DNA of 64,000 nucleotides from Candidatus Latescibacterota bacterium (lineage in GTDB: Bacteria > Latescibacterota > UBA2968 > UBA8231): the NCBI GenBank assembly GCA_964291625.2, contig OZ220089.1, forward strand, positions 3,200,001 to 3,264,000, written 5' to 3'. Below are positions 37,304 to 54,500 of the stretch, piece by piece; position 1 is the first letter of the stretch; every line of letters begins with the position of its first letter. A model generated the notes under the pieces. The model was not told where the DNA came from. It made no database searches and saw only the letters and a list, made by a program, of their open reading frames with translations. A program made the position numbers and the translations under genes.

Positions 37304-40300
37304 GACTTGGGCCGCTGCAATCCATGGGAGCGCATGCGGGAACGGAGGCGTTCCGGATTCATCCCCAACAGCCTGGCCGCACCGTGCTCTCCGTAGATCC
37401 TCCCCTTTGTCGCCCGGAGGGCGTCCATGATCTGCTGCTTCTCGCTCCGTTCATCCGGCAGCGACACATGGCAGACCTCCAGGACCGGGCCTTCGCACAG
37501 CATCAGGCCCCGCCGTATCAGGTGCTCGAGCTCGCGGACGTTCCCCGGCCAGGAGTACTTCCGCAAGTAGGTCAGGGTCTCCTGGCTCAGTGTGGGTACC
37601 GGGCGCCGCAGCTGCCGGGCGAATTCAGCGGCAAAGTGCTCTGCCAGGCCCGGGATCTCCTCGCGGCGGTCTCGCAGAGGCGGCAGCACCACCGGGAAGG
37701 TGTTCAGGCGGTAGTAGAGTGGAGCCCGGAAGGCCTCTTCCTTGACCATTTCCCCCAGATCCCGGTCCGTTGCGGCAATCACCCGGACGTCCACCGGAAC
37801 GGACTCCACTCCTCCCACCCGTCTCAGCAGGCCATCGTCCAGGATGTGGAGCAGGGCCTGTTGCCCGGCGGGTGGCAGATCGGCGACCTCATCCAGGAAC
37901 AAGGTCCCTTCATGGGCCTGCTCCATGAGGCCGATCGTTCGCCTCTCCCCGCCCGGGACTGCTCCCGGTTCATGCCCGAACAGTTCACTCTCGACCCGCG
38001 AGGCGGTCAGGGACCCGCAATTGACGTGGACGAAGGCGTGTTGCCTGCGCGGGCTCAGGTCATGGACTTCACGGGCCACGAGACCCTTGCCCGTACCTGT
38101 CTCTCCATGCAACAGCAAGGTCATGTCGGTCGCCGCCACCCGCCGGAGCCGCTCCAGGATCCGCGCTATGGTCGCACTGTGGCCTGGAACCGAATCCACC
38201 CGGCTCTCGTCGGTTGCGCCCGGGACGATCCGAACCTGCAACAGCGCTGACTCGGACACGTTGCCTTCCGGGTCCCGGACCCGCACCTCGAAACGATACT
38301 CGCCGATGGACAGGTCCTGGTACGACACCCGGTTCTTCGGCGTGAACTCACTCCACTCCGCCTTCGAACCGTTGCCCACGAGACGGTGGCTGTAGAGCAA
38401 CGGATCCTCATCGATCCTGAATCGGATACCCTGAAAGTGAATCACCACTTCAGCCGTACCCCGCGGAAATGAGACGGATTCAGGCGCCTCCAGAAGCCGG
38501 CCCTCCACGAGTTGGCGTATAACGAGGCCAGGGGAGACATGGTGAGGCTGGTACGAGATGAGGCCTGCCCCGGTCCCAAACCAGAGCCGGCCCAGGCGAT
38601 CGCAGAGAATCGCGTGGACCGCCCCGCTCTCCAGCGGACCCTCGCCTGGGCGAAGACGACGGAAGGCCTGGCCATCGTAGCTCGAGACCCCACCGCCATC
38701 GGTTCCGATCCACAGCCGCCCCTGCCGGTCGGTGGTCAGCGACAGGATGCGGTTGGCTGACAGGCCCTGAGCCATGGTGAACCTGCGCACCTCCCGGGAG
38801 CGCGGGTCAACGGAGAAAAGCCCGGCGGTGGTCCCCAGCCAGAGCATTCCCGAGTGCTCGCACAGGGCGTTCACCCCGGGAATCGCTTCCAGCCCGGCGA
38901 AGTCAGCCGCACGGAGACGATCGGCACCGTCCGTGTAGTACAGGGCCGGACTCCCCAGGCCCGAACCGATCCAGAAGACGCCGCCGCTATCCTCCATGAT
39001 CGCCCTGCACGCATAGGGCAACCGATCCTCCAGAGCGACGAACCGTTCTTCCTCGAAGTGTCCGAGGAGCCCATGTGAAGTGCCGACCCACAGACGCCCT
39101 GTCCGGTCCGCGCACAGCCCTGTAACGATCTCGTGATCGTCCCCTGCGAGTTCGGCGACCACCCGGGATTCCGAGCTCGCCCCCTTGGATACCTTGCCTG
39201 CCGCGTCGCCGACCCAGAGCGTTCCCTGCCGGTCCACCTCCATTGCGAAGACCGCAGGCCCCGTCGTCATCGGGCGGATCCTGTCCTCTTCATGGCAGGC
39301 GATCCCCTTGCTGGTGCCGATCCAGACCCGGCCTCGGCGGTCCTCGACCAGGGATCTGACAAGGTTGCCGGGGAGGCCGTCAACCTCCGTGTACCTCCTG
39401 ACGCCGGACCTGGCGACAAAGAGCAGGCCGCCGCCCCAGGACCCGATCCAGATGTTCTTCTCGTGGTCCTCGTACGTCAGACGGGTACTCCTGAAATCCA
39501 TCTCCGGGAAGGCGTCCGAGAACGGATACCAGGTCTGCCCGTCATGCACCAGCACCCCCCGGCGGGCCATCCACAGCCAGCCCCTGTCGTCCACGCGGAC
39601 ATGCCGTATTCCCGGCCTCACGATCTCTGCCGCCTCGGGGGCGCTCACATCGACGAAGTCGAGGTGCCGGCTCCGCGGATCGTAACGGCCCACAACGGCT
39701 TCCTCGTTCCTCTGAGGAGCGATCCACAGACGGCCGGAAGTGTCCTGGGCCAGCTTCCAGGCCCATTTGTGGGCACCGCCCTGGCCGAAGAGGGGGCTCA
39801 TGCAGCGGCCATCCAGGCTGATGATCCCCCGGGTCCGCGTGGCCAGCCAGGTCGTGCCCGTGGAGTCGGTCACCAGGTCGTGCACCCGCCCTATGGGCCG
39901 GCCCCCGATTTCGGTGGTGGACTCCACGCACCGGCCGCCGGCGAACCGGCAGACTCCGGCCCCCGAAAGCACCTGCAATGAGCCATCGGGCTGCGGCTGC
40001 AGGCCCAGGATTTCGTTGGACGGCAGGCCGTGCTCCGTGGTGTACACCCGGAACCCCCGGCCGTCGAAGGCGGCCAGTCCCCCGCCGAGCGTACCGAACC
40101 ACAGCTGCCCGCCCGCGTCTTCGGCGATGGTCATCACCGTGAGAGAGGGAAGGCCGTCGGACAGTCCGAAGTTCTCGAAGACTTCTCCGTCGAACCGGCT
40201 CACCCCGCCGTCGGCGGTGGCGACCCAGAGCAGACCGCGTCCGTCCTGGAAGAGATCCTCAACCAGCATCCCGGCCAGCCCGTCCTGGAGGGTGAACTGG

Positions 40301-40350
40301 CGGGCGCCGGTGTAGCCGAAGGGTGTGGTTCCTCCCGGCTTCATGGGCAA
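37300..40350 (-). CDS. Reg_prop beta-propeller + Y_Y_Y + sigma54-type AAA+ + Fis-HTH regulator (GAFTGA degenerate)
   Basis: DGL...D..G.LW.GT.GG repeats; YSHRL...YQDLSIGEYRFEVR; GETGTGKG, ELFGHEPGAVPGG, LFLDEV, LYYRLN, WPGNVREL, GAARLLG. Confidence 0.88.
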   Translation of the reverse strand: MPMKPGGTTPFGYTGARQFTLQDGLAGMLVEDLFQDGRGLLWVATADGGVSRFDGEVFENFGLSDGLPSLTVMTIAEDAGGQLWFGTLGGGLAAFDGRGFRVYTTEHGLPSNEILGLQPQPDGSLQVLSGAGVCRFAGGRCVESTTEIGGRPIGRVHDLVTDSTGTTWLATRTRGIISLDGRCMSPLFGQGGAHKWAWKLAQDTSGRLWIAPQRNEEAVVGRYDPRSRHLDFVDVSAPEAAEIVRPGIRHVRVDDRGWLWMARRGVLVHDGQTWYPFSDAFPEMDFRSTRLTYEDHEKNIWIGSWGGGLLFVARSGVRRYTEVDGLPGNLVRSLVEDRRGRVWIGTSKGIACHEEDRIRPMTTGPAVFAMEVDRQGTLWVGDAAGKVSKGASSESRVVAELAGDDHEIVTGLCADRTGRLWVGTSHGLLGHFEEERFVALEDRLPYACRAIMEDSGGVFWIGSGLGSPALYYTDGADRLRAADFAGLEAIPGVNALCEHSGMLWLGTTAGLFSVDPRSREVRRFTMAQGLSANRILSLTTDRQGRLWIGTDGGGVSSYDGQAFRRLRPGEGPLESGAVHAILCDRLGRLWFGTGAGLISYQPHHVSPGLVIRQLVEGRLLEAPESVSFPRGTAEVVIHFQGIRFRIDEDPLLYSHRLVGNGSKAEWSEFTPKNRVSYQDLSIGEYRFEVRVRDPEGNVSESALLQVRIVPGATDESRVDSVPGHSATIARILERLRRVAATDMTLLLHGETGTGKGLVAREVHDLSPRRQHAFVHVNCGSLTASRVESELFGHEPGAVPGGERRTIGLMEQAHEGTLFLDEVADLPPAGQQALLHILDDGLLRRVGGVESVPVDVRVIAATDRDLGEMVKEEAFRAPLYYRLNTFPVVLPPLRDRREEIPGLAEHFAAEFARQLRRPVPTLSQETLTYLRKYSWPGNVRELEHLIRRGLMLCEGPVLEVCHVSLPDERSEKQQIMDALRATKGRIYGEHGAARLLGMNPERLRSRMRSHGLQRPKS

Positions 40351-40548
40351 TGCTCGTCATCCCCGTGGCGGTGGTGGAGGCGATCTCCCCGGGCAGCGCG
40401 AAATCTCCAGCCGCCTGCCCGAGCAACCACGTTGGAATTAGGGTGGACCTGCGGAGTTGATCAAGGAGCAGCTCTGAGTCAGGGCCTACCTGCCCTGACA
40501 CGGGTCTCTCGCGCACCTGGGGGACCCGGGCAGAGTAGCCTAGTCAGA

Positions 40549-40770
40549 AAGTGGAATTGAGCGGATACGCTCTAAACGTATGGATCTAAAACCACAGATT
40601 TCATTGGCCAGCAGCGATATAAGGATGAATGGTCGTATCCATACGTTCATAGCGTACGATGGCCAGACTTTCCATGTATCGCCAGCTTCTGCCAAGTGTT
40701 GAATTTCCACTTGCTTTTTCGCAGTAGGGACCCCCTTATCTGAGGCCATGCAGGTGGATATTTAAGTGCC
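40549..40770. promoter_or_regulatory. AT-rich divergent control region with nested inverted repeats
   Basis: TACGCTCTAAACGTATGGAT (40566-40585) / ATCCATACGTTCATAGCGTA (40637-40656), 18/20 complementary; outer AAGTGGAATT / AATTTCCACTT; weak GG-N10-GC at 40756-40769. Confidence 0.6.
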
Positions 40771-40821
40771 TGTTTCCAATGACATGACAGGAAGAGGCAG
40801 GATGAGACTGAGACAAGCCCC

Positions 40822-40908
40822 CCCTCCGGTTGCATGCAGGCAGCCTGGCCCCGGCGGCCTTCCTGATGCTGATCCAGGGCCCGTCCGAGGTCCTGGCCGA
40901 CCGCGAGA
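40822..40908 (+). pseudogene. Stranded signal-peptide remnant homologous to the 5' end of gene A2
   Basis: LRLHAGSLAPAAFLMLIQGPSEVLADRE vs LRLPAASLALAAFLMLKGVHGPSEVFADHE (46282-46375); out of frame with A1. Confidence 0.8.
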
Positions 40909-40938
40909 GACGTCCATGTCCCCAAGAACTGCCGAGAG

Positions 40939-43900
40939 ATGAGAGTGAAAAGTCGAACAGGAATTCTCTGGTGCACCCTGCGTCCAGGCCCGGGTTCTGT
41001 CCTGATCGGCCTGCTTGGGTCGATCGCGTTTCACGACCCCGCCCAGGGCGCCGGTTTCTACCTTGAATGTCTCACCACAGAGGTTCGGGAAGGCGATTCT
41101 TTCGTCGTCACCCTCGTATACACCTCCTCCACCACCAGCATTATAGGCGCCTACTGGCACACTGACGCGGGCACTGCCGACTCCACCGATTACGTGGCCC
41201 AGGAGAATGAACTCCACTGGGGTAGCGTGGAAGATTCGAGGAACAGCCGTGTAGACCACACCTTCAGCACCCGTGAAGACACCCTGATCGAGGGTAACGA
41301 GACCTTCACGGTTTTCTTCACTCCCACGGACAACGTCGTGGACATGAACGACCCCGACCGCGACAACGCGTGCGGGATCACCATCATCGACGACGACCCC
41401 GGCATCACGAGGGTCAGCGTTGTCTCGACCCCGGCCAGGGACGAAACCTACGGGGTGGGCGAAACCATCAGATTCGGGGCGACCTTCAGCCGCGCGGTGG
41501 AGGTGGACGGCAATCCGGCACTTGGCCTCTGGGTCGGCAGCAACTGGAGGTCCGCCCGTTACCTCTGGGGTTCCGGCACCAGGAGACTGGCGTTCGGCTA
41601 CACGGTGAAGTCGGAGGACTCCGACAGCGACGGCGTGAGCATGGACGGCGGTTACCAGGACAGCCAGGGCCAGTGGCACAACTTCATCAACCACACCGCG
41701 GTCACGGCGGTGGGAACAGATACAGTCGCCTACCGGGCCTATGCCGGCATCGGCCACCAGTCGGGCCACAAGGTGGACGGCAGCCTCACTCCCATCGGCA
41801 CCGGAATGGAGATCACCTCCACACCTGCCGGTGGGGACAGCACCTACCGCTACGGGGAGACCATCACCGTTGCTCTCACCTTCAGCGCGGCCGTGGATGT
41901 CGACGGAACGGTTCTGTTGAACGCTCGAGCGGGAACCGGCGACGACACCTGGCGCGGGGTCAGGTACCAGGAGGGCTCCGGCACCCGAACCCTGGTCTTC
42001 GGCTACACGGTGCAGTCGAAAGACCTGGATACCGACGGATTCAGGGTGGAGGGAAGCTACGTCCAGGACGGTGTCCGCCGCGGTTTCGGCGGCAGCGGCA
42101 CCGTAAAGGTCAAGGGCACCGACACCGAGGTGCCGCCGAACTTCTCCGGCCTGTCGGACCAGTCCGGCCACAAGCTGGACGGCCGGCCATACGCCAGAAC
42201 GATCTCCATCACCTCCACCCCCACGGCCAGGAGCGACACCTACGGCAAGGGCGACACGATCCAGGTCAGCATCGACTTCGGCCAGGCAGTGGACGCCGGG
42301 GACGGTGTCATCGCCATCATCAGGATGGGTTCGATCTTGAACCAGAGGCAACCGCCGGTCGCTTCGGGCAGCGGCACCGACACTCTGCGGTTCGAGTACG
42401 AGGTCGTGGAAGGGGACCGGGACAGCAACGGGATCGATGCCTTCCTGCCCCATGGCCTGGACATCAAGGCTGCGGGCACCGACATCGCCTACGTGCCCAA
42501 CCCTGGAGGGGAGACTCCTGCCATGGGCGAAGACCCCGCCCACAAGGTGGACGCCAGGCTCATAGGAAACGACACCCGGGCCCCCACCATCTCTTCGATA
42601 TCCTTCACCGACAGTCCGGGGCCGGGTGCGGATTCCACCTACGTCGCAGACGACTACATCGGGGTCTGGGTGACCTTCAGCGAGAGGGTGCTCGCCACCG
42701 GGGCGCCCCAGGTGGAGCTCGACATCGGCGGCACGGCGCGGATTGCCCGGTACGGACAACTGGCCGGCGGAAGGACGATCGACCCGAGGGTCCAGGGCGT
42801 CGCCAACGCCACGTTGGTATTCGGCTACACCGTGCAGGAAGGGGACGTCGACAGCGACGGCATCTCCATAGGCGAGAACAAGGTGTCCCTGAACGGCGGC
42901 ACGATCGCTGACGAGGCCAGCAACGCGGCGGTATTGACCCACAGCGCCGTGGCGGCCGACCCGGGACACAAGGTGGACGCACCGGACACTACGGCGCCGA
43001 CCGTGTCGTCGGTGGCCATCACCTCCAACGCCGGGGACGACTCCACCTACGCCATCGGCGACAGCATCCGGGTGACGGTGACCTTCAGCGAGGACGTGAC
43101 GGTGAACGTGGGCGGCACCCTGCAGCTGCTGGTCGAGCTGGATGTCGGCGGCACCGCCAGGAACGCGGACTACCACAGCAGCGATTCGTCGGCTGTCGTC
43201 TTCAACTACACGGTGGCGTCGGGGGACGCGGATTCAGACGGCATCTCCATCGGCGCCGACAAGATCAGTCTGGACGACGCCACCATCCGGGACGCCGCGG
43301 GCAACGACGCGACCCTGACCCAAACGGCGGACCCGGAGGTGATCGCCGCCCACCCGACGGTGGCCGCCGATGCCGCTCACAAGGTGGACGGCGTGCGCCC
43401 GGCCTTCTCGAGCGCGGCGACCTCCACGGACGGCACGAAGGTGATCGTCACCTTCAGCGAGGAGACCACCGTGCCGGCGCTGCTGCGCTCGATCAGCACC
43501 ATGGTGAACGTCGCCCTGGATCGGTTCTACATCGCGGTCGTGGGCGTTACCGTGGACGACGACGAGGTGGTCCCAACCGCCGCCAGCCTTGCCGATACCA
43601 CCCTCACAATGACTTTGGGATCGGCTGTAACCCAGAGCCAGGAAGTGGAGGTGGCCTACGACAACATCTTCGCCCGCGACGCCGTCGGCCTCTTCATCGA
43701 CGGGGCCGGCAACGCCCTGCACCCCTTCTCCTCCCGGGATGTCACCAACAACTCCACCGTTGCCGACGCCGACGCGGGGGACGACCCGCCGGCCCTGACG
43801 CTGAGCCACACGGAGCTCGAGATCACCGAAGGGGCGACCTTCGACTACACCGTGGTCTTGGGAAGCGAGCCCACGGCGGACGTGACCGTTACGATCACGA

Positions 43901-44109
43901 GCTCTTCGACCAAGCTGTCGGCGAGTTCGACAACCCTCACGTTCACCACGGGAGACTGGGAGACGGCGCAGTCGGTGAGGCTCACCGCCAACCAGGACGA
44001 CGACGACCTCAACTACTGGGTGAGCGTGGCCCACACGGCCAGCGGTGGAGGCTACGACTCGTCGGCGGCGAATCTGTACGTGGTCATCGACGACGATGAC
44101 GACGAATAG
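40939..44109 (+). CDS. Module 1 gene A: secreted protein, Calx-beta + 5 Ig-like 'HKVDG' repeats + SwmB-like + Calx-beta-like C-domain
   Basis: DTLIEGNETFTV...ITIIDDD; five ~120-aa TY..G(E/D)TI....TFS...GSGT..L.FGYTV...D.D.DG...HKVDG units; TLTFTTGDWETAQ; ends VVIDDDDDE. Confidence 0.8.
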   Translation: MRVKSRTGILWCTLRPGPGSVLIGLLGSIAFHDPAQGAGFYLECLTTEVREGDSFVVTLVYTSSTTSIIGAYWHTDAGTADSTDYVAQENELHWGSVEDSRNSRVDHTFSTREDTLIEGNETFTVFFTPTDNVVDMNDPDRDNACGITIIDDDPGITRVSVVSTPARDETYGVGETIRFGATFSRAVEVDGNPALGLWVGSNWRSARYLWGSGTRRLAFGYTVKSEDSDSDGVSMDGGYQDSQGQWHNFINHTAVTAVGTDTVAYRAYAGIGHQSGHKVDGSLTPIGTGMEITSTPAGGDSTYRYGETITVALTFSAAVDVDGTVLLNARAGTGDDTWRGVRYQEGSGTRTLVFGYTVQSKDLDTDGFRVEGSYVQDGVRRGFGGSGTVKVKGTDTEVPPNFSGLSDQSGHKLDGRPYARTISITSTPTARSDTYGKGDTIQVSIDFGQAVDAGDGVIAIIRMGSILNQRQPPVASGSGTDTLRFEYEVVEGDRDSNGIDAFLPHGLDIKAAGTDIAYVPNPGGETPAMGEDPAHKVDARLIGNDTRAPTISSISFTDSPGPGADSTYVADDYIGVWVTFSERVLATGAPQVELDIGGTARIARYGQLAGGRTIDPRVQGVANATLVFGYTVQEGDVDSDGISIGENKVSLNGGTIADEASNAAVLTHSAVAADPGHKVDAPDTTAPTVSSVAITSNAGDDSTYAIGDSIRVTVTFSEDVTVNVGGTLQLLVELDVGGTARNADYHSSDSSAVVFNYTVASGDADSDGISIGADKISLDDATIRDAAGNDATLTQTADPEVIAAHPTVAADAAHKVDGVRPAFSSAATSTDGTKVIVTFSEETTVPALLRSISTMVNVALDRFYIAVVGVTVDDDEVVPTAASLADTTLTMTLGSAVTQSQEVEVAYDNIFARDAVGLFIDGAGNALHPFSSRDVTNNSTVADADAGDDPPALTLSHTELEITEGATFDYTVVLGSEPTADVTVTITSSSTKLSASSTTLTFTTGDWETAQSVRLTANQDDDDLNYWVSVAHTASGGGYDSSAANLYVVIDDDDDE

Positions 44110-44136
44110 TCGAAAATCGAAGAGCCTGAATTTCAA

Positions 44137-45387
44137 ATGAAGTCCTTGATTTTCGCTTTAGCGGTTATCCATCCCCTTTCGCTGTGGGCCGACCACCCCG
44201 CCCCCCGGCCTCTGGATTCCTGGGAGCTGGCGGGGAACAGTCTGAAGTTCGACGTCGCAACCATTCTCGCCCAGGCGGATGAAGGGGGTGAACCCATACC
44301 CGCAACGCCCTCCGTCACCCTGGAGCTCTTCGAAGGCAACTTCTTCAAGCTCTCCATCCTCACCGAGGCGGAGGAGGGGTACACCTTTCCTCACTTCCTT
44401 CCCGGTCCGCCCGTCCACAGCCCTCCCCCTTCAACGAGGGCTGCGGCGGGGTTCGGATATTTCAGCACGCACTCCGATACCCTGCGGTTCAACGCCCACT
44501 ATCTGAAGCTGTTCGCAGACGGGGAGGACCTGGAAGAGATCATCGGGCGCTCCGGCGACGCCGGGGCGATCGATGAATACAAGCTGGTCATCTCCCTGGT
44601 GAACGGTCTGTACCTGGATCTGTTCAACCACCTGTACGCGTACGAGTCCGCCGACCGGCTGGTGTTCCTGCTGCCGGCGGGCAGCCCGTTCACCGAGGCA
44701 ATGGGGGATCCGGCCGGTGGCGTCGTCTGGGAGCTGGAAAGAGCCGGAGCGACACCGTCCCCGTCGTTGACGGCGGTGAAGGCCAGGGTGCCGGGCGAAG
44801 GGGCCGCGGGCCTGACCCTCGAGTTCGGGCGCGCCGTGGCCGGCAGACCCGTCCACTACGCCTGGGGGGGGATCACCGACGAAACCGGCCGGGTGGAGCT
44901 GACCCTGTCCACTCTGGACCGGTCCGGGGCCACCGGCTTCTACCGGGCCCGGGCAAGCAACCAGGAGGGTCAGGTGGTGGGCAAGTGGCACAGCATTCCC
45001 CTCAACGAGAACCGACGCCAGGTCCTGGAGCTGACCCCGGGAGGAGACGCCCGGGTGGTGTCCAGCCAGTGGCTGGGCGCGGCCAAGACTGCCGCCGGTG
45101 GGGAGCCGGTGGCCATCGGCCTGGCGCGCAATTTCCCCAACCCCTTCAACAGCAGCACCCGGATCGTCTACCGGCTGGCCAACCCCGGTCCGGTGAGTCT
45201 GGAGATCTACAACACCCTCGGACAGCCGCTGGCCACCCTGGTGGACGAGGTCCAGGCCCCCGGCCGTTACCAGGTGCACTGGGACGCCCGCGACCAGCGC
45301 GGTGCTGCGGTGGCCGCCGGGGTCTACCTGACGCGCCTGGTGTATCCGGGAGGAGTGGAGACGCGGCGCGTGCTGTATCTCAAGTAG
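44137..45387 (+). CDS. Module 1 gene B: secreted protein, uncharacterised N-domain + Ig-like + C-terminal FlgD-Ig/T9SS-A-like domain
   Basis: Signal peptide; NFPNPFNSST...IYNTLGQ...WDARDQRGAAVAAGVYLTRL...VLYLK. Confidence 0.85.
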   Translation: MKSLIFALAVIHPLSLWADHPAPRPLDSWELAGNSLKFDVATILAQADEGGEPIPATPSVTLELFEGNFFKLSILTEAEEGYTFPHFLPGPPVHSPPPSTRAAAGFGYFSTHSDTLRFNAHYLKLFADGEDLEEIIGRSGDAGAIDEYKLVISLVNGLYLDLFNHLYAYESADRLVFLLPAGSPFTEAMGDPAGGVVWELERAGATPSPSLTAVKARVPGEGAAGLTLEFGRAVAGRPVHYAWGGITDETGRVELTLSTLDRSGATGFYRARASNQEGQVVGKWHSIPLNENRRQVLELTPGGDARVVSSQWLGAAKTAAGGEPVAIGLARNFPNPFNSSTRIVYRLANPGPVSLEIYNTLGQPLATLVDEVQAPGRYQVHWDARDQRGAAVAAGVYLTRLVYPGGVETRRVLYLK

Positions 45388-45462
45388 CTCTCCTGAAATG
45401 GTCCCTGCGCATACATGAAACCAGGAATCGCGTTACCCCATTAAAAGAGGGGAGGAATTCCG

Positions 45463-46233
45463 ATGAGACGCATCGTGTCTCCTTCAATTGCTCTGTTCAT
45501 GGGCCTGGCATCCAGCCTTCGGGCGGACCTGGTACCGTTCGAAGGACAGGTACTGGACCTCAGGTCCGCGCCGGTCCATCGGGCCGAGGTGGTGCTCTTC
45601 AACCTCGACAACCCCAGTTCGAGGGTGAGCACGACAACCGACGAGAGCGGCTCCTTCTCGATGTCCCTGGCCGACCTGGCCCTGCCGCGATCGAACGCGC
45701 TGGGGCAGAACTACCCGAATCCGTTCAACCCTTCCACCCTGATCCCCTTTGAGATCGCTGAGAGCGGACACGTTCGCCTGGACGTGTTCAACATCCTGGG
45801 CCAGCGCATGGTCACGCTGATAGATGAACAGCGCCGGGCCGGTCTCTACCAGGCGCAGTGGGACGCCACCGACGCCGAGGGCCGCCCGGTGGGTACCGGG
45901 GTTTACATCTACCGGCTCACCACGGGGAACTGGCAGGAGACGCGCAAGCTGGTCCTGATCGACGGCCCGGCGGGGAGCCCGAACGGGAGCGGCGGGAACA
46001 TCGAGGGGGAGGGGGCCAGGTACGGTGTGGAGATCTCCGGCGAGGAGATCCTCCCGGCGACCTTCACCTGGAGCCCGGAGATGGGCTCCCTGGTGGCGGA
46101 GGTGACCAGCGTGAACAACGTCCATCCCCCCGATCTCGAGGACTCCGGGATGGCCTCCAGTCCCTTCTACGGGACCAGCCTCGCCTCGGTCATCGAGGTC
46201 GTTTCAGCGTTCTCAAAGCGAGGAAGCGAATGA
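45463..46233 (+). CDS. Module 1 gene C: secreted protein with internal FlgD-Ig/T9SS-A-like domain
   Basis: Signal peptide; GQVLD..PV..AEVVL..TTTDESGSF; LGQNYPNPFNPST...GVYIYRL; ~90-aa tail; GGAGG RBS. Confidence 0.85.
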   Translation: MRRIVSPSIALFMGLASSLRADLVPFEGQVLDLRSAPVHRAEVVLFNLDNPSSRVSTTTDESGSFSMSLADLALPRSNALGQNYPNPFNPSTLIPFEIAESGHVRLDVFNILGQRMVTLIDEQRRAGLYQAQWDATDAEGRPVGTGVYIYRLTTGNWQETRKLVLIDGPAGSPNGSGGNIEGEGARYGVEISGEEILPATFTWSPEMGSLVAEVTSVNNVHPPDLEDSGMASSPFYGTSLASVIEVVSAFSKRGSE

Positions 46234-49088
46234 GTTCATGCCACTCTTCGAATGATCCAGGTGCGAATCTGGGAGCCGGCACCCTCCGGTTGCCCGCAGC
46301 CAGCCTGGCCCTGGCGGCCTTCCTGATGCTGAAGGGCGTCCATGGCCCGTCCGAGGTCTTCGCCGATCACGAGATTGCCACCATGACGGCGATGAACGTG
46401 ATCTCCGTACCTCCGGATTCCGCGTTCTACAGCGTTTCATCTTCATATTCACATGGCCCCAATGGGGAGACCTACGGGCTGGGAGAGATCATTGAGATCG
46501 AGGCCACCTTCAACAGGGGCATGCTGGTCACTGGCAGTGGCGAGGTCAAGATGGACCTCACCGTCGGCGACTCGACGAGGACCGCCACGTACCATCGCGG
46601 ATCCGGCACGAGAAAGCTGGTCTTCCGTTACGAAGTGATCGCCACGGACGTGGACACCGACGGGATCAGCGCACCCGCGACCGCCTGGAGCGGCAGCGGC
46701 ACGGTGAAGACTCTGGTTTCCAACTTTGCGGCGGTCTTCACGCCCTTGGGGCTCGACACCCAGTCGGGTCACAAGGTGAACGGCAGCCTGGGGCCCTGGG
46801 TCACCAAGGTGGAAATCGCCTCCACGCCTGCCTCCGGCACCACCTACCGGCATGGAGAAGAGGTCGAGATCGACGTGACGTACACCGCTCCCGTGCGGGT
46901 CGACAGCGTCAACCGACCCTGGCTGGCCTATTTCTGGAACCGGGCGTCGGATGGCACAGAACAGCAGAATCTTGCCGGGTACCGGAGCGGGAGCGGTACC
47001 AACACGCTGCGTCTCTCCTTTACGGTGAGATCCGAATTCAAGGACACCGACGGGGTCCGGATCGGGAGTGCTTTCCCTGATCAGTCAGGCGAGAGAAGGG
47101 AAAGAGTCGTCTGGGCGTTGAACCACGACGGCGTGAGGGCGCCCTGGAGAATGTCGGGGCTCGACGCGGATCCCGACCACAAGATGAACGGGGAGCCGTA
47201 CATAAAGGGAGTTGCCGTCACCTCAAGCCCGGCCTACGGCACCACCTACCGGCGCACGGAGGCGATCCGGATCGCGGTCACCTTCGACCAGAACGTCCAG
47301 GTAGAGGGCACCGTGACCAAGGGCTTGAAGTTCACCGATGGCGACGGCGGGTTCACCAGCCCCCATGCCCAGTTCGCCTCCGGTAACCGCACCACGACCC
47401 TGGTCTTCAAACACACCGTCGTGGAAGGGGATGAAGACACGGACGGTCTCACCGTCCTGGCGGGCGATGACGGTGGATGGGGGGGGAGCGGAAAGATCTG
47501 GTCGTCGCGCCCGGCGGGCTCCCTGGAGAGTTCAGTGCAAGCCGATGGGAGGCACAGCGAGATCGCGAACGCCGCCAGCCACAAGGTGGACGGAGCGCTG
47601 ACCCTGCCCGTTCCCGGCATCTCGTCGGTCGAGTTGGTAACGGATCCGGGGGACGACTCCACGTATGTCGCCGGCGACTGGATTGGCGCCAAGGTGACCT
47701 TCGACGAAAGCGTGTCCGTCACGGGCACTCCGCAGCTCAGGATGGGAGTCGGGACAACGGAGAAGATCGCCCGGTTCGGGCAGGGCTCGTTCGAGGGAAG
47801 TGTCAGCCCCGCCGACAGGACCGCCGGCCCCGAGGTGGTCTTCGGCTACCAAGTGCAGGAGGGCGACATCGACAGCGACGGCATCGCCATCGGGGAGGAC
47901 AAGCTCACGCTCAACGGCGGCGCCATCAAGCAGGCCGTGACGGACGTGGCCGCGGACCTGAGCCACGATCCCGTGACCCCCGACGCCGGCCACAAGGTGG
48001 ATGCCGTGGCCCCTGTCGTGTCATCCATCGCCATCAGCTCCCGCGCGGGCGGCGATTCTCACTACGCCATCGGCGACAGCATCAAGGTGACCCTGACCTT
48101 CAGCGAGGAGGTGACCGTTTCCGGCGCCCCGCAACTGGAGCTGGACCTCGGCGGCGGGGCGAAAACGGCCACCTACAACTTCACCGGAGATTCAACCGCG
48201 GTCTTCGCCTACGTCGTTCAGGAGGGGGACGCCGACACGGACGGCGTCGCCATCGACGCCGACACCCTCAGTCTTGCGGACGACAGCGCCATCACGGACC
48301 GCGTCGGCAATCCAGCGGAGCTGGCCTACGGGGCCGTCGCCGCCGACCGCGCCCACAGGGTCGACGGGGTGTCTCCCACTTTCAGCTCCGCGGAAGTCCT
48401 CCACACCGGCCGTCAGGTCAACCTGTTCTTCAGCGAGCAGGTCACCGTTCCCCGGATTCTTCGCACGATCAGTGGCATCGTCAACGTAAGTCTCGGTCAG
48501 TTCTTCATAGCGGTCTTGACCCTTGAGGTGGACGGCCATCAGGTGCGGCCCAGTTCCGCCTCTCTTCACGGTCTCACGTTGCAGCTGGGCCTCTACGCCT
48601 CGAATCGGGTGACCGAGAGCCAGCGGGTCAAAATATCCTACGACAACATCTTCGCCGCCGATGCGGTGGGCCTCTTCATCGACGGGGTCGGCAACCCGTT
48701 GGCCAACTTCGGCGCCGCCACTGCACAAAACCTTTCCAACCAGGCGGACGGGGAGGAACCGGACGTGGGGGAACTGGTATTGAGCCGGGACGAATTCAGG
48801 ATCACCGAAGGGGAAACCAGAGGGTATACGGTAGCCCTGGAGTCTCAGCCTTCCGACAGCGTGACCGTTGCCGTCAGCAGCTCCTCGAGCAAGGTGTCGG
48901 CCAATCGCGACAGCCTCACCTTCACCACGGACAACTGGAGTACGCCGCAGAGGGTGAGGCTCACCGCCAACCACGACGACGACGACCTGAACTACTGGGT
49001 GGCCGTGACCAACAGGGGCAGCGGGGACGGCTACGAGGGCGCAAGGAAGTGGGTGCTTGTGGTCATCGACGACGACGACGGGGAATAG
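46230..49088 (+). CDS. Module 2 gene A: secreted protein, 5 'HKVDG' repeats + SwmB-like + Calx-beta-like C-domain
   Basis: ATG at 46230 overlaps the C1 stop (ATGA); same architecture as 40939..44109 without the N-terminal Calx-beta; ends VVIDDDDGE. Confidence 0.8.
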   Translation: MSSCHSSNDPGANLGAGTLRLPAASLALAAFLMLKGVHGPSEVFADHEIATMTAMNVISVPPDSAFYSVSSSYSHGPNGETYGLGEIIEIEATFNRGMLVTGSGEVKMDLTVGDSTRTATYHRGSGTRKLVFRYEVIATDVDTDGISAPATAWSGSGTVKTLVSNFAAVFTPLGLDTQSGHKVNGSLGPWVTKVEIASTPASGTTYRHGEEVEIDVTYTAPVRVDSVNRPWLAYFWNRASDGTEQQNLAGYRSGSGTNTLRLSFTVRSEFKDTDGVRIGSAFPDQSGERRERVVWALNHDGVRAPWRMSGLDADPDHKMNGEPYIKGVAVTSSPAYGTTYRRTEAIRIAVTFDQNVQVEGTVTKGLKFTDGDGGFTSPHAQFASGNRTTTLVFKHTVVEGDEDTDGLTVLAGDDGGWGGSGKIWSSRPAGSLESSVQADGRHSEIANAASHKVDGALTLPVPGISSVELVTDPGDDSTYVAGDWIGAKVTFDESVSVTGTPQLRMGVGTTEKIARFGQGSFEGSVSPADRTAGPEVVFGYQVQEGDIDSDGIAIGEDKLTLNGGAIKQAVTDVAADLSHDPVTPDAGHKVDAVAPVVSSIAISSRAGGDSHYAIGDSIKVTLTFSEEVTVSGAPQLELDLGGGAKTATYNFTGDSTAVFAYVVQEGDADTDGVAIDADTLSLADDSAITDRVGNPAELAYGAVAADRAHRVDGVSPTFSSAEVLHTGRQVNLFFSEQVTVPRILRTISGIVNVSLGQFFIAVLTLEVDGHQVRPSSASLHGLTLQLGLYASNRVTESQRVKISYDNIFAADAVGLFIDGVGNPLANFGAATAQNLSNQADGEEPDVGELVLSRDEFRITEGETRGYTVALESQPSDSVTVAVSSSSSKVSANRDSLTFTTDNWSTPQRVRLTANHDDDDLNYWVAVTNRGSGDGYEGARKWVLVVIDDDDGE

Positions 49089-49097
49089 GGGAGAGGC

Positions 49098-50366
49098 GTG
49101 ACCAATCAAGGCGGCAAGCCAGGACTGTCGATACTTGCTCTTGCCCTGGTGTTTCCCCTTTCGCTGCGGGCCGACCCCGACGCTCCCCGGCCTCTCGATT
49201 CCTGGGAGCTGGCGGACAACAGCCTGAAGTTCCGCGTCGAGACCATCCTGGCTCAGCCGGTAGATGGGGATGAACCGATACCCGCAACACCCTCTGTCAC
49301 CCTGGAACTATACCAGGGCCACTTCTACAAGCTCTCGATCCTCACCGAGGCAGCGGAGGGGTATGCCTTTCCCGACCCCGGTCCCCCTGTCCACAGTCCT
49401 CCCCCTTCAACGAGGGCTATGGCGGGGTTCGGATATTACAGCACGCAGTCCGATACCCTGCGGTTCAATGCCCACTATCTGAAGCTGTTCGCGAACGGGA
49501 AGGACCTGGAGGAGCTCATCGAGCAGTCCGGCGACGCCGGGGCCCTCGAGGAGTTCAAGTTCGTCATCTCCCTGGTCAACGGTCTCTACCTGGATCTGTT
49601 CAACCACCTCTACGCCTACGAATCAGGCGACCGGCTGGTGTTCCTGCTTCCCGCGGGCAGCCCCTTCACCGCCGGAATGGGGGATCCCGCGGGCGGGGTG
49701 GTCTGGGAGCTGGAGAGATCCGGACCTTTGCCGTCGTCGTCGATGACGGCCGTGGAGGCCACGGTGCCGGGCGACCAAGCCGCGGGCCTGACCATCGAGT
49801 TCGCGCGCTCCATTGCCGGGCGTGCCGTCCACTACGCCTGGGGCGGGATCACCGACGAGGCCGGCCGGGTGGAGCTGGACCTGTCCACCCTGGACCGGTC
49901 CGGAGCCACCGGTTTCTACCGGGCCCGGGCCAGCCATCGGGGGGGCGAAGTGGTGGGCCAGTGGCACAGCATCCCCCTGAACCGCGACCGTCTCCAGGTC
50001 CTGGAGCTGGTCCCGGGCGGACGGGCGCGCGTGGTCTCCAGCCGGCCGCTGGAGTCGGCCAAGGCGGTGGCGGGGCGGGAGCCGGTGGCCGCCGGGCTGG
50101 CGTCCAACTACCCCAACCCCTTCAACAGCAGCACCCGGATCGAATACGGGCTGGGCGCCGCCGGGCGGGTGCGGCTGGAGATCTACAACGTCCTGGGGCA
50201 GCCGGTGCGCACCCTCGTGGATGAGGAGTCCCAGGACGCCGGGATGTACCAGGTCGAGTGGGACGCCCGGGACCAGCGCGGGGCCGCCGTGGCCGCCGGG
50301 GTCTATCTGACGCGCCTGGTCTACCCGGGAGGAGTGGAGACGCGGCGCGTGCTGTATCTCAAATAG
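49098..50366 (+). CDS. Module 2 gene B (close paralog of 44137..45387)
   Basis: Shares PRPLDSWELA.NSLKF, SDTLRFNAHYLKLFA, VISLVNGLYLDLFNHLYAYES and an identical last ~30 aa. Confidence 0.88.
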   Translation: MTNQGGKPGLSILALALVFPLSLRADPDAPRPLDSWELADNSLKFRVETILAQPVDGDEPIPATPSVTLELYQGHFYKLSILTEAAEGYAFPDPGPPVHSPPPSTRAMAGFGYYSTQSDTLRFNAHYLKLFANGKDLEELIEQSGDAGALEEFKFVISLVNGLYLDLFNHLYAYESGDRLVFLLPAGSPFTAGMGDPAGGVVWELERSGPLPSSSMTAVEATVPGDQAAGLTIEFARSIAGRAVHYAWGGITDEAGRVELDLSTLDRSGATGFYRARASHRGGEVVGQWHSIPLNRDRLQVLELVPGGRARVVSSRPLESAKAVAGREPVAAGLASNYPNPFNSSTRIEYGLGAAGRVRLEIYNVLGQPVRTLVDEESQDAGMYQVEWDARDQRGAAVAAGVYLTRLVYPGGVETRRVLYLK

Positions 50367-50381
50367 CCGGAGGGAACACCG

Positions 50382-51137
50382 ATGAAACGCATCTCGAGTC
50401 TCCTGCTTGGGTCCATGGTCCTGTCAATCGGCGCGTTGGCCGACGTGGTGCCCTTTGAAGGACGGGTCCTGCTGGCGTCGGAGCCTCTTGCCATACCTGG
50501 AGCCCGGATCGTGCTCTACGACCTGGAGCGTCCGGAGTCCCGGATCACCACCACCACCGCCGCCGACGGCTCCTTCTCCCTGGCCTGGAGCGAGCTGGTC
50601 CGGCCGGAGTCGGATGTGCTTGGGCAGAACTATCCCAATCCCTTCAACCCCTCCACCCTGATGCCCTTCCAGCTCTCCGAGGCCGGGCCCGTGCGTCTGG
50701 ACGTGTTCAACATGCTGGGCCAGCGACTGGTCACCCTGGTGGACGGAGAGCAGTCCGCCGGCCTTCACCAGGTTCAGTGGGACGGCACCGACGGGGCGGG
50801 CCGGGCCGTGGGCGCGGGCGTCTACATCTACCGGCTCACCACCCGTGAAGGCCAGCAGACGCGGAGGCTGGTCCTCGTCGACGGCCAGGCAGGCCGGCCC
50901 GGCCGCGGAGCGGGGACGTCCGAAGGGGTGGTGAGCCCGCGATACGGCGTGGAGATCTCCGGCCAGGACATCGTCACCTCGACCTGGGTGTGGTCGCCGG
51001 AGATGGGGGCGCTCGTTGCCCAGGTCGAGGGCGCCCGGCCGCGGTTGCCGACCGAGCTCGACACGCCCCAGGTGGGACCGAATCCCTTCTCCGGGATCGA
51101 CCTGGACTCGGTGATCCAGGTCATCACCGCGCTCTGA
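50382..51137 (+). CDS. Module 2 gene C (paralog of 45463..46233)
   Basis: D.VPFEG.VL, LGQNYPNPFNPSTL.PF, RYGVEISG..I...T..WSPEMG.LVA.V, PF.G..L.SVI.V..A. Confidence 0.88.
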   Translation: MKRISSLLLGSMVLSIGALADVVPFEGRVLLASEPLAIPGARIVLYDLERPESRITTTTAADGSFSLAWSELVRPESDVLGQNYPNPFNPSTLMPFQLSEAGPVRLDVFNMLGQRLVTLVDGEQSAGLHQVQWDGTDGAGRAVGAGVYIYRLTTREGQQTRRLVLVDGQAGRPGRGAGTSEGVVSPRYGVEISGQDIVTSTWVWSPEMGALVAQVEGARPRLPTELDTPQVGPNPFSGIDLDSVIQVITAL

Positions 51138-51150: not shown

Positions 51151-51524
51151 CGCGTTTCCACCACCGTCTGTGTGTGGTGGTGGTGGCCACATGTGTGGCC
51201 GTTGCCATCCTGATCTGGGGTGACGGGAGGGAGCGGGGTCGTCAACGCCCCACCCGGGTGCCAGCCGGCGAGCCCCCCTTGGCATCGTTGAAGCTCCTCT
51301 ACCCCTGCGACCCCTCTTCCCTCCCCTGCTGCCTGGTTCGCCAGGAAGCTGACCCCTCCCCGGCCTTCCCGGGCCCAGCGGGCTCTTTCTACAACCCGCC
51401 ACTCGGACAAGAACCCGCCGAAAGCACCTGACCGTCCACCGTACGGGGGTAGCCCCAGGACGCGATGGGTCCGAGCAAATCACCCTGATCTGCGCAGGGG
51501 TTGGGGACAACGAATGAGCCGCTG

Positions 51525-54500
51525 ATGGACGCACCCGAATCCACTCCGAGGATTCACGCGCCGTGCTCGGGTGACCTCGGGATTCTGAGGTTCGTGGTCG
51601 TCGGGTTCCTGTGTTTGTTGCCGGGGGCGCTGTCGGAGTCGCGGGTGGAGGGTCAGGGCGGGGCCGTGGTTCCGTCTCGTCTGTACTGGACGGACGGGGG
51701 TCTCGACAAGATCCAGCGTTGCCTGTTGGACGGGTCGGAGGTGGAGGACGTGGTCACCGGCCCGCGTCAGATGCGCGGGCTGGCGGTGGATGTTGCCGGC
51801 CAGCGGCTGTACTGGGCGGACCGGGCCCGCGGCAAGATCCAGCGGTCGGACCTGGATGGCTATGGGGAGCGGGACCTGGTGAGCCACGGCCTGAGCCATC
51901 CCCGGAGCGTGGTGGTGGACCCCGAGGCCGGCCGGATGTACTGGACCGACTCGGGCAGCGACAAGATCCAGGTGGCCGACCTGGACGGCTCGAACGTGCA
52001 GGACCTGATCACGGAAGGCCTCCAGACCCCCCTGGGCCTGGCCCTGGATGGGGACGCCGGGCAGCTATACTGGAGCGACCGGGGCACCGGCAAGATCCAG
52101 CGGTCCCACCTCGACGGCTCCGGGGTGGAGGATCTGGTCACCGGTCTGGGCACCCCCCGGGGCCTGGCCCTGGACCTGGGTGCCGGCCAGATCTACTGGA
52201 CCGACTCCAGTACTGACAAGATCCAGCGATCCAACCTCGACGGCTCCGAGGTGGAGGAGGTGGTGAGCGGTCTGCGCCTGCCGCGGGGCCTGGCCCTGGA
52301 CCCGACCGCGGGCCGGATCTACTGGACGGACTCGGCCGCCGGCAAGATCCAGAGCGCCAACCTGGACGGCTCGGACATGCGCGATCTGGTCACCGGTCTG
52401 CGCGATCCCCGGGGGCTGGCCCTGGCTCTGGCGGAGCCGTCGAACCGCCCCCCGGTGGTGACTCCGATCGAGGACCGCACCCTGGCCGCCGGCGACACCC
52501 TGAGGCTGCCGGTGGGGGGTCAGGATCCGGACGGCGACGAGTTGACTTGGTCGGCGCGCTCCGACGACGAGGCGGTAGCCACTGCAGAGGTCCAGGGCGA
52601 GACCCTGCGCCTCGTGGCCATCGCGCCCGGCCAAGCCTCCATCGAGGTCACCGCCCGCGACCCGGGCGGCCGGAGCGCCACCGAGGCCTTCACCGTCACG
52701 GTGCCGGCCAACCAGCCGCCCGAGGCGGTGGCCCGCCTCTACTGGACGGACGCCGGCACGGGCCGGATCCGCCGGGCCGCCCTCGACGGGTCGGGGGCGG
52801 AAGACCTGATCACCGGGCTGAGTCAGCCCCGGGGCCTGGCCCTGGACGCGGCCGGGGGGCGGCTCTACTGGACCGACAGCCGCGCCGACAAGATCCAGCG
52901 CGCTTCCCTGGACGGCTCGCTGGTGGAGGACCTGGTCACCGACGGCCTGCGGTCGCCCTCGGGTCTGGCCGTCGACCCGGGCGGCGCCAAGGTCTACTGG
53001 AGCGACTACGGCACCCGCCGGATCCAGCGGGCCGACTTGGACGGCAGCGGGGTGGAGGACGTGGTCGTCCGGGGCCTGCGCAGCCCCCTGGGCCTGGCAG
53101 TGGACGGGACCGCTGGCCGGCTCTACTGGACCGACTGGGGCGCCGACCGGATCCAGCGGTCCGGCCTCGACGGCCGGGGCGTGCGCAACCTGGTCACCAC
53201 CGGTTTGCAGTCTCCCCAGGACATCGTCGTGGACCCGGTCGGCGGCTATCTGTACTGGGCCGACTTCGGGACCGACAAGATCCAGCGGGCGGCCCTCGAC
53301 GGCTCGGGGGTGGAGGACGTGATCACCGAGGGCCTGCAGGCTCCCCAGGGTCTGGCGATCGACCCGGCGGCGGGCCGGCTCTACTGGACCGACCCCGGCA
53401 CCGACCGGATCCAGCGGTCCAACCTCGACGGCTCCGAGGTGGAGGACGTGATCACGAAAGACCTGGACACGCCCTACGGGCTGGCCCTGGGCGCGGGTCT
53501 GCCGGCGCGGCAGGTGCGGGCCGGCTACGAGCCGGACACCCTGTCGCTGGCCGGCCGCTTCCTCGACCCGGAGGGCGGCGCCCTGAGCTACCGCGCGGTC
53601 TCGGGGGACACGGCCCTGGCGCTGGCGTCCGTGACCCGGGACACACTGACCGTCACGGGGGTCGCCGCCGGGTACACGTCGATCGAGGTCACCGCGCGGG
53701 ATCCGGAGGGGCTGGAGGCCTCCCTGCCCCTGGCGGTGCGGGTGCTGCCCCACGCCAACCGGCCGCCGGTGCTGACCCCGCTTCCGGACCTGGCCGCCCT
53801 CACCGGGGACACCCTGACCGTCGGCATCGAGGCCACCGACCCCGACGGCGACAGCCTGAGCTACGCGGCCGCTTCCGCTGACACCGCCCTCGTCCAGGCC
53901 AGTACCGCCGATTCGGTGATCACCCTGCGGCCCATCGCGGCGGGCGAGACGTCGATCGCGGTGACGGTCCGCGACGACAGCCTGGCGGTGGCCGACACCT
54001 TCGGGGTGACGGTGTCGTGGTCGAACCGGGCGCCGCAGCCCGGCAGCCTGCGGGCCCGCCAGGTGTTCCTGGGCGGGGTGGCCAGGATCGTCCTGCGCCG
54101 GGAGTTCACCGACCCCGACGGCGACAGCCTGAGCTATACCGCCGCGTCGCGGGACTCGACCGTGGCCACGGCCGCGGTCTCCCGCGACACCCTGACGATC
54201 ACCCCGGTGGCCTCGGGCCGGACGGCGATCGACATGACGGCCACCGATCCGGAGGGCCTGCAGGCGGCCGGGTCCTTCGCCCTCACCGTCCGCCGCCGCC
54301 CCCCGCCCCCACCGCCCGGCGGCGGAGGGGGTGGCGGCGGTGGAGGCGGTGGAGGCGGAGGTTTCTTCATCCCGCCGCCCCCGCCCCCTCCGCCCCGGAC
54401 CACCAACGAGGCGCCGGTCTTCCCCGAGGCGCCGAGCACGTCCCGCACGGTGCCGGAGAACACCGCCGCCAACCGCAACATCCAGCACCCGGTGCGGGCC

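Follow-up and report, generated by a model that had tools for sequence, protein, structure and literature searches.

A candidate mobile display cassette linked to type IX secretion in the Latescibacterota

The 64,000-nucleotide (nt) stretch of a Candidatus Latescibacterota bacterium genome analysed here (contig OZ220089.1, positions 3,200,001 to 3,264,000; hereafter the window) carries, at 40939-51137, six genes on the + strand arranged as a three-gene set, A-B-C, that occurs twice in tandem. A is a large secreted repeat protein, and B and C are small proteins with a type IX secretion system (T9SS) sorting or sorting-like domain. Judged from sequence comparison across the phylum, the trio forms a unit that is conserved, has a patchy distribution and moves horizontally. 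We tentatively read it as a mobile T9SS-linked display cassette in which B, and possibly C, would bind the C-terminal unit of A and export or tether A, a model that we hold to be possible rather than probable.

The first set comprises A1 (40939..44109, 1056 amino acids (aa), a secreted repeat protein of type I), B1 (44137..45387, 416 aa) and C1 (45463..46233, 256 aa), and the second A2 (46230..49088, 952 aa, a secreted repeat protein of type II whose start overlaps the C1 stop), B2 (49098..50366, 422 aa) and C2 (50382..51137, 251 aa). The gaps across the six genes are, in order, 27, 75, -4 (ATGA), 9 and 15 nt, and no terminator-like site was found on the + strand between them, the sole + strand match lying inside A1. 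By BLASTP the B paralogs are 78% identical, the C paralogs 53% and the A proteins 44% over 916 aligned residues. A preliminary description of this DNA, made from the sequence alone, had noted both the tight coupling (gaps of 9-75 bp and an ATGA overlap) and this ranking of similarity (B highest, C intermediate, A lowest), and the gene coordinates and the 78/53/44% identities confirm both. The GC content drops to 62-67% in the 40-50 kb region, much of the window being at 69-74%.

Of 168 Latescibacterota genomes, 17, from three families of a single class, have the N-terminal domain of B, with 22 matches in all. The surroundings of each match, up to 20 kb, were compared, their open reading frames (ORFs) being assigned by BLAST queries taken from A, B and C. 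All 21 B genes covered in this way (B1 and B2 of the window included) have an A gene directly upstream, though in one case, where a contig begins, no more than the final 40 codons of A are visible, and 20 of them have a C gene directly downstream, in one case split over two frames. Most genomes have a single A-B-C with nothing large after C; among the variants, genome G105 has A C A B C, genome G049 has A A B C and genome G160 has A B A B. The conserved tail of C occurs in 19 of the 168 genomes, namely the same 17 together with G056 and G107, the last of which keeps it only as a 50-aa relic. The C-terminal unit of A is present at full length (E<1e-60) in 20 genomes, G072 and G078 among them; in G078 the contig ends there. 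The synteny that the preliminary description had proposed to look for is thus found in the Latescibacterota genomes that have B, and the outcome that it had named as fatal, B and C occurring independently of A, was not encountered: B always stands behind A, and matches to the tail of C were confined to these loci and to relics. We also considered the pairing of C with a following large protein (C1 with A2, and C2 with the giant protein downstream) as the unit, and rejected it, since a lone A-B-C is usual and both A2 and the giant protein have signal peptides of their own. At locus L030 (G160:C77, 1477-2006) the C ortholog is divided between two frames and continues into an ORF of 1917 aa; a frameshift, an assembly error or an incipient fusion could account for this.

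Comparison between genomes reverses the picture given by the two copies within this one. Between families f1, f3 and f4, A genes of one type share 77-89% identity, and the range at four-fold degenerate sites is again 77-89%, whereas the B and C genes beside them are mostly 43-65% identical (45-64% at four-fold degenerate sites). Because A is far more alike across families than the adjacent B and C, synonymous sites included, A is exchanged horizontally and with gene precision. Against genome G054, sliding DNA identity in A1 and A2 is mostly 85-97%, dipping locally to 67-77%, but is ~58-76% over B and C and ~40% upstream, and it falls abruptly at the A2 stop codon, from 95% to 59%; the same 85-97% identity of A1 and A2, with a sharp drop at the gene ends, is seen against L037, L039, L043, L045 and other loci of another family. 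Whole cassettes move too, since in type III and in G105 the B and C genes are also alike (65-91%). Two genes could be used as baselines of divergence, PorU (53% identical against G105) and an RNase D-like protein (55%); in f3, PorU gave partial matches of 33-35% only and the RNase D-like protein had no match in four genomes. A 375-aa neighbour, tried as a further baseline, was matched nowhere and is uninformative.

The opposite relation also occurs, B being 75% identical between G073 and G090 as against 36% for A, much as B1 and B2 (78%) compare with A1 and A2 (45%) in the genome of the window (G000). In the B tree, f1 genes group regardless of the type of the neighbouring A, and in genus g24 the B clades follow A type. 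The B and C genes that follow A genes of types I, II and III are closely related to one another, and this fits B and C as generic partners of the C-terminal unit that all A types have in common. Just upstream of A1 on the + strand, DNA alignment located a relic of ~100 nt (40815..40914) of the signal-peptide coding region of an A2-type gene, with no start codon; it aligns with the 5' end of A2 (46250-46395) at a mean column identity of 83%, the core being nearly identical and a single gap of 6 nt present, and its frame, preceded by stops, translates as LRLHAGSLAPAAFLMLIQGPSEVLADRE. The relic is the footprint of an A allele replacement at this locus. On these comparisons A is a horizontally swapped, gene-sized unit in front of resident B and C rather than simply a variable partner. 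The earlier contrast of conserved B and C with a variable A is therefore the wrong way round between genomes, and the related claim that A is the most divergent of the three holds only for the two copies within this genome, A being the most conserved between genomes.

B itself has, in sequence and in predicted structure, the build of an ordinary T9SS type-A cargo protein, with a payload, a transthyretin-like spacer and a terminal sorting domain. In B1 a signal peptide, read by eye from a hydrophobic stretch ending ..LSLWA/D, is followed by the N-domain (aa ~24-205), the spacer (~208-310) and a type-A sorting domain (333-416). TIGR04183 matches the extreme C-terminus of B1 and B2 at 34.1 and 33.4 bits (cut-off 23 bits), ending 3 residues before the stop, and FlgD_ig matches at 29.8 and 35.1 bits (cut-off 27 bits). 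A model of B1 made with AlphaFold2 (AF2) from 21 sequences, with a mean predicted local distance difference test score (pLDDT) of 59.9, resembles transthyretin-like folds over residues 208-310 (Z 8-9), and its tail resembles the C-terminal domain of PorU (6za2; Z 7.1, root mean square deviation (rmsd) 2.7, 81 aligned). Three paralogs in the genome of the window have the same spacer and sorting domain, and the two that were scanned with Pfam carry Cache and WD40 payloads; because other payloads are mounted in the same way, B has the ordinary cargo build of this genome.

The payload of B is, in the searches made, an orphan confined to this cassette. A search with B residues 1-210 among 5.8 billion proteins gave 39 clusters at 90% identity, most of them ~404-425 aa long and five shorter (268-315 aa), while a profile search of 1.84 billion representatives returned one full-length match, five shorter ones and one unrelated weak match, a transthyretin-repeat protein. 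Scanning 185,579 species genomes yielded 19 loci, all in the Latescibacterota group that has the cassette. The model of the N-domain has a long helix and is weakly lipocalin-like, with best matches at Z 6.4-6.8 (BcnB, 5ixg, Z 6.8, rmsd 4.2, 118 aligned; ToxS, 8u2f, Z 6.8, rmsd 3.9, 119 aligned); a lipocalin-like fold was considered and, as these Z scores lie within the common range, no fold is claimed. The preliminary description had B as a conserved unknown N-domain joined to a C-terminal FlgD-Ig/T9SS-A domain, and it was right about both halves.

In C the sorting-like domain lies elsewhere in the chain. C1 consists of a signal peptide, a short CarboxypepD_reg-like domain, the sorting-like domain, a Gly-rich linker, a small beta unit and a conserved tail that ends ..NPF(S/Y)GTSLAS(I/V)I(Q/E)VVS... 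TIGR04183 matches residues 84-164 of C1 and C2 at 43.8 and 44.4 bits, and a conserved extension of 88-92 aa follows, in keeping with the internal sorting-type domain noticed at the outset. Since this domain is internal rather than C-terminal, we do not file C as ordinary T9SS type-A cargo. Its AF2 model (mean pLDDT 42.1) is unusable, so that the amphipathic helix suggested earlier for the end of C is a putative one.

Residues 1-198 of C match 12 paralogs in the same genome by tblastn at 42-52% identity. Among the 4234 ORFs of this genome that pass a codon-position GC filter, 142 have the sorting-like domain, at the terminus in 128 and internally in 14, and these 14 comprise C1 and C2 along with 12 large proteins (758-2089 aa). 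In the large proteins the whole C-like module, of ~200 aa, is N-terminal (signal peptide, CarboxypepD_reg-like domain, sorting-like domain, ..DGQAG.. linker and beta unit ..YGLTVSGPGL..); a type I dockerin comes next and YWTD, LRR, WD40, CARDB or PPC passengers after that, with no C-terminal sorting domain. The conserved tail of C (..NPFSGTSLASIIQVVSG) replaces the dockerin of these paralogs, eleven of which lie on contig G000:C1 (892330-896046, 900900-906962, 909771-916040, 957140-962911, 1143528-1147451, 1661254-1665162, 1669036-1671312, 3650313-3656546, 3656249-3658711, 3741991-3745179 and 3998701-4001607) and one on G000:C2 (1058270-1062091). Three of them were scanned with Pfam, and CarboxypepD_reg and FlgD_ig were matched in all three and Dockerin_1 above its cut-off in one.

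Residues 1-310 of one paralog, used as a database query, matched at least 120 clusters at E<1e-94, nearly all covering at least 90% of the module, with passengers that vary (ankyrin, cadherin, fn3, LRR, WD40, YWTD); where the sources give these clusters a name, which is seldom, it is 'T9SS type A sorting domain-containing protein' or 'DUF5050 domain-containing protein'. C is on this comparison not a unique adaptor but the shortest, passenger-less member of a large family built on an N-terminal leader module, and that unnamed family is possibly a non-canonical export or anchor device. Two other identities were considered for the tail of C, and neither found support. As a degenerate dockerin it has no Pfam match at E<=10, and it aligns opposite the first dockerin repeat of the paralogs with none of the Ca-binding loop residues; as a first strand of a sorting domain (NPF...), tails score -1.9 to 0.7 bits against up to 4.5 for shuffled tails with a genome-derived profile.

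A carries no such domain. A1 is built of a signal peptide, a weak Calx-beta-like N-domain, ~5 immunoglobulin (Ig)-like repeats of ~130 aa each, a weak SWM_repeat-like domain and an acidic C-terminal domain, and both A1 and A2 end in VVIDDDD(D/G)E. Scans with Pfam and NCBIfam at E<=0.01 found neither a sorting domain of type A or type B nor a barrel in either protein, in agreement with the preliminary description, and a genome-wide jackhmmer sorting-domain profile did not match A; nor do A1 and A2 have a lipobox or a build of the type I secretion system (T1SS) type. Scanned domain by domain with Pfam, A gave sub-threshold matches only, to Calx-beta (23.4 bits), SWM_repeat (24.5 bits; cut-off 27 bits for both) and LapA (16.6 bits), so the 'SwmB' label given to it earlier, and likewise a Calx label, has its basis in matches below threshold; a resemblance to SWM_repeat and Calx-beta is plausible, membership of either family being a further step. 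A1 had no relative at E<=1 in a PDB sequence search. Four types of A are distinguished, I (A1-like, with the Calx-like N-domain), II (A2-like), III (1170-1420 aa) and a more distant IIb, and they have only the last ~380 residues in common. Within this shared part lies a C-terminal two-domain unit, the last 242 aa of A1 (43381..44106, + strand), which is common to all A types and has a mean column identity of 67% in an alignment of 23 sequences. The last domain by itself is a common repeat in giant proteins, occurring in 54 of the 168 genomes of the phylum.

The genome of the window (5.9 Mb, 2 contigs, 95% complete) encodes several components with which a T9SS could be made. SprA is matched over its cut-off in three pieces within one 2117-aa frame, PorU is found in two genes (571.7 and 536.7 bits; cut-off 420), and a PorV-like gene, below cut-off at 114 of 250 bits, adjoins one of the PorU genes. 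No secretin was found in this 95%-complete genome (6 of 14 control genomes matched the family), and A thus has no evident type II secretion route.

We propose that A is a Sec-exported, adhesin-like rod with exchangeable N-terminal repeat types, whose conserved C-terminal two-domain unit would serve as the docking end. The orphan payload of B, of ~180 aa, would bind this unit, and A would then either be carried out together with B or be captured and held at the surface by B already exported. C may be a free-standing leader or anchor module whose conserved tail gives a second, non-covalent link to A. In this model the binding of A to B, any part played by C and the way in which A passes the outer membrane are inferred. 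The predicted complex bears on the first of these. A three-chain prediction, with a separate alignment for each chain, combined residues 24-210 of B (the N-domain), residues 165-256 of C (the tail) and, as the partner, the 242 C-terminal residues of A; it reached an ipSAE of 0.54 (runs 0.00, 0.54 and 0.56), against 0.00 for the best of three controls, with a partner pLDDT of at least 76 and a contact agreement between runs of at least 0%. A control in which the B N-domain was replaced, with A and the C tail kept, also scored 0.00, and the predicted contact consequently involves B; the same result lends no support to a contact between A and the C tail and is equally no evidence against one. The interface imagined earlier among all three proteins is reduced to a putative contact between the A C-terminal unit and the B N-domain, for which the prediction gives weak support.

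Several observations weigh against a role of B or C in carrying or holding A. The ipSAE mark is reached by 116 of 157 solved complexes and by 2 of 215 mismatched pairs, but scores of up to 0.60 comprise only 18 of the 157 and both of the mismatches that passed, so that the score obtained falls in the calibration range described as more often wrong than right unless the contact is likely beforehand; the calibration is, moreover, only approximate for custom alignments and three chains, and the single-chain models of B and C are poor. Of the T9SS core genes that the preliminary description had pointed to, SprA, PorU and a PorV-like gene are there, but GldK gave only partial matches below cut-off, and GldL (TIGR03513) and GldM (TIGR03517, PF12081) gave none with Bacteroidota-trained models, which barely matched the control genomes either; an energising part of the T9SS is therefore putative in this genome. 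In G056, A is followed by a 71-aa remnant of B and then by C, implying that B was lost. The only B with no C directly downstream, in the module of G160, is followed by an A2-type gene instead. G072 (one contig, ~97% complete) has two tandem A genes and neither a B N-domain nor a C tail genome-wide. Taken together, these three cases indicate that A has no strict need of B or C in cis; B never occurs without an A upstream, whereas A can do without B, or without both, and the dependence is not obligate. In the open-access texts searched, no T9SS export of a protein that lacks a sorting domain and rides on a cargo was found.

These points bear on three other explanations. The main rival makes A, B and C independent secreted proteins under common regulation, retained and passed on jointly as an accessory island of host- or matrix-interaction proteins, with no complex and no part for B or C in the export of A. 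The solitary A genes of G072 and the A without B in G056 suit it, as do the loose copy number of the cassette in G105 and G049, the many other large secreted eukaryote-like repeat proteins of the window and the faint backing from complex prediction. It leaves unexplained why the A-B-C order stays fixed in three families despite repeated replacement of A, why the payload domain of B exists nowhere else, and why B and C are kept, with short gaps and one start/stop overlap, when the type of A changes, and we consider it unlikely, though it deserves to be taken seriously. A second alternative grants B and C a function at the surface but makes A a periplasmic or envelope scaffold, or a protein released by lysis or vesicles, that never passes through the T9SS. 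It draws on the Sec signal peptide of A in the absence of a sorting domain, barrel, lipobox or T1SS-type build, and on the undetected GldLM. We judge it improbable, since rods of ~1000 aa with Ig-like and Calx-like repeats are typical of extracellular adhesins, since the same repeat units recur in the neighbouring giant protein beside cadherin and fn3 domains, and since the high rate at which A is exchanged between lineages is as expected of surface-exposed, niche-specific factors.

The last alternative, that C is a decaying, truncated pseudogene of a large leader-module protein, B an unrelated neighbour and the trio a duplication artefact, takes its force from the equivalence of C to the first ~200 residues of the large paralogs and from the C ortholog of G160 that is split over two frames. 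It is largely refuted by conservation and scarcely credible: C with its own tail is intact in 19 aligned genes of 16 genomes at a mean column identity of 70%, the tail is found always at A-B-C loci or as relics, and it is not the start of the paralogs' dockerin. An appendage system, also suggested at first, has nothing that points to it. The display cassette, in which B and perhaps C carry or hold A, remains the reading that we prefer, at the tentative level given above.

The cassette may be set beside several known arrangements. In the Fibrobacteres-Chlorobi-Bacteroidetes (FCB) group, T9SS type-A cargo (TIGR04183/PF18962) is processed by PorU and shuttled by PorV. B is like such cargo in its Sec signal, payload, spacer and terminal sorting domain, and its genome has SprA, PorU and a PorV-like gene; unlike such cargo, the payload of B is an orphan, C has the domain internally with ~90 residues after it, and A has no such domain. 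SprB and SprF of Flavobacterium johnsoniae are an example of a type-B cargo and its partner. There, as here, a large surface adhesin gene lies beside small dedicated accessory genes for secretion or anchoring, but the accessory proteins of the present trio are soluble sorting-domain proteins rather than outer-membrane barrels, and the adhesin is without a sorting domain. Adjacent encoding of type-B sorting-domain cargo and a PorP/SprF-like partner is described in PMC9143113. The cohesin-dockerin 'plug and socket' offers another parallel to the proposal, with B as a small socket-spacer-sorting-domain protein that would hold a tag-less adhesin non-covalently by its docking end, although neither a cohesin nor a dockerin profile matches A, B or C, and the B N-domain model, with its long helix and weakly lipocalin-like character, is not cohesin-like. 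Co-export by the twin-arginine translocation (Tat) system, of the 'hitchhiker' kind exemplified by PaoABC of Escherichia coli (PMC4273604), likewise has a folded partner with no signal exported by binding to a signal-bearing subunit, which for A and B is a proposal only; it involves another membrane and another machine, and no T9SS counterpart was found in the literature searched. By analogy, the cassette would work like Tat hitchhiking or cohesin-dockerin display while belonging to neither.

No description of the cassette, of the B domain or of N-terminal sorting-like modules was found in open-access texts, and none of the texts searched joined the Latescibacterota or Latescibacteria with type IX secretion. 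The consulted part of a review of T9SS effectors makes no mention of piggyback, hitchhiking or internal sorting, and that of a paper on sponge-associated Latescibacterota makes none of a secretion system, type IX, dockerin, cadherin or adhesion. T9SS cargo is defined by a C-terminal sorting domain, and here a tag-less adhesin is linked with two small tag-bearing proteins, one having an orphan payload and the other its tag in an unusual place. If B or C does carry or hold A, the T9SS would for the first time be seen to work through an adaptor, as a 'piggyback' or 'plug and socket', and there would be a lead to how these uncultured bacteria bring their many giant, tag-less, eukaryote-like proteins to the surface. 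A wider generalization, in which a large tag-less adhesin is exported or displayed through small sorting-domain adaptors (B, perhaps C), the N-terminal sorting-like domain of C and of hundreds of dockerin and repeat proteins is a retained export or anchor module rather than a cleaved C-terminal tag, and adhesin genes are exchangeable 'heads' passed among lineages that live together and fitted onto an adaptor pair already in place, is on present evidence a rather long shot. Gene-precise exchange of A alleles between bacterial families points to active sharing of surface factors, and current annotation mislabels the leader-module family as ordinary 'T9SS type A sorting domain-containing protein'.

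Four sequencing runs (X2, X3, X6 and X19) were aligned to the locus; X3, X6 and X19 are labelled sponge metagenome and X2 marine metagenome, and near-identical pieces of the locus occur in runs with the sponge label. In X19, metatranscriptomic on record, contigs 97-99% alike cover parts of A1, B1, A2, B2 and C2, one of them crossing the A1/B1 junction (43918-44201, 7 differences) and another the B2/C2 junction (50232-50542, 2 differences). These contigs hint that the genes of the trio are transcribed; a contig over two genes falls short of proving one transcript, and DNA carry-over is possible.

Divergent from A1, on the - strand, lies a gene for a sigma-54 enhancer-binding protein with a Reg_prop/Y_Y_Y (beta-propeller) sensor region (37300..40350). 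A sigma-54 promoter 5' of A1 was looked for and rejected: the exact consensus TGGCAC-N5-TTGC occurs nowhere in the window, and of the 33 window matches with up to two mismatches (~50 expected by chance) none falls in 40350-40939. Downstream of C2, on the + strand, a giant secreted protein of ~3470 aa (51501..61928) combines YWTD (LDL-receptor), LRR, fn3, cadherin and SWM repeats with a leishmanolysin-like M8 domain, its signal peptide being accompanied by no sorting domain. Elsewhere in the window are a eukaryote-like ankyrin-repeat protein (22990-24075) and a VIT-VWA (inter-alpha-trypsin-like) protein with a FlgD_ig/sorting-like domain at its end (32312-34744). Peptidase_M78/IrrE-like genes are often found in mobile elements, and one such gene lies on the - strand at the low-GC end of the window (62927-63949).

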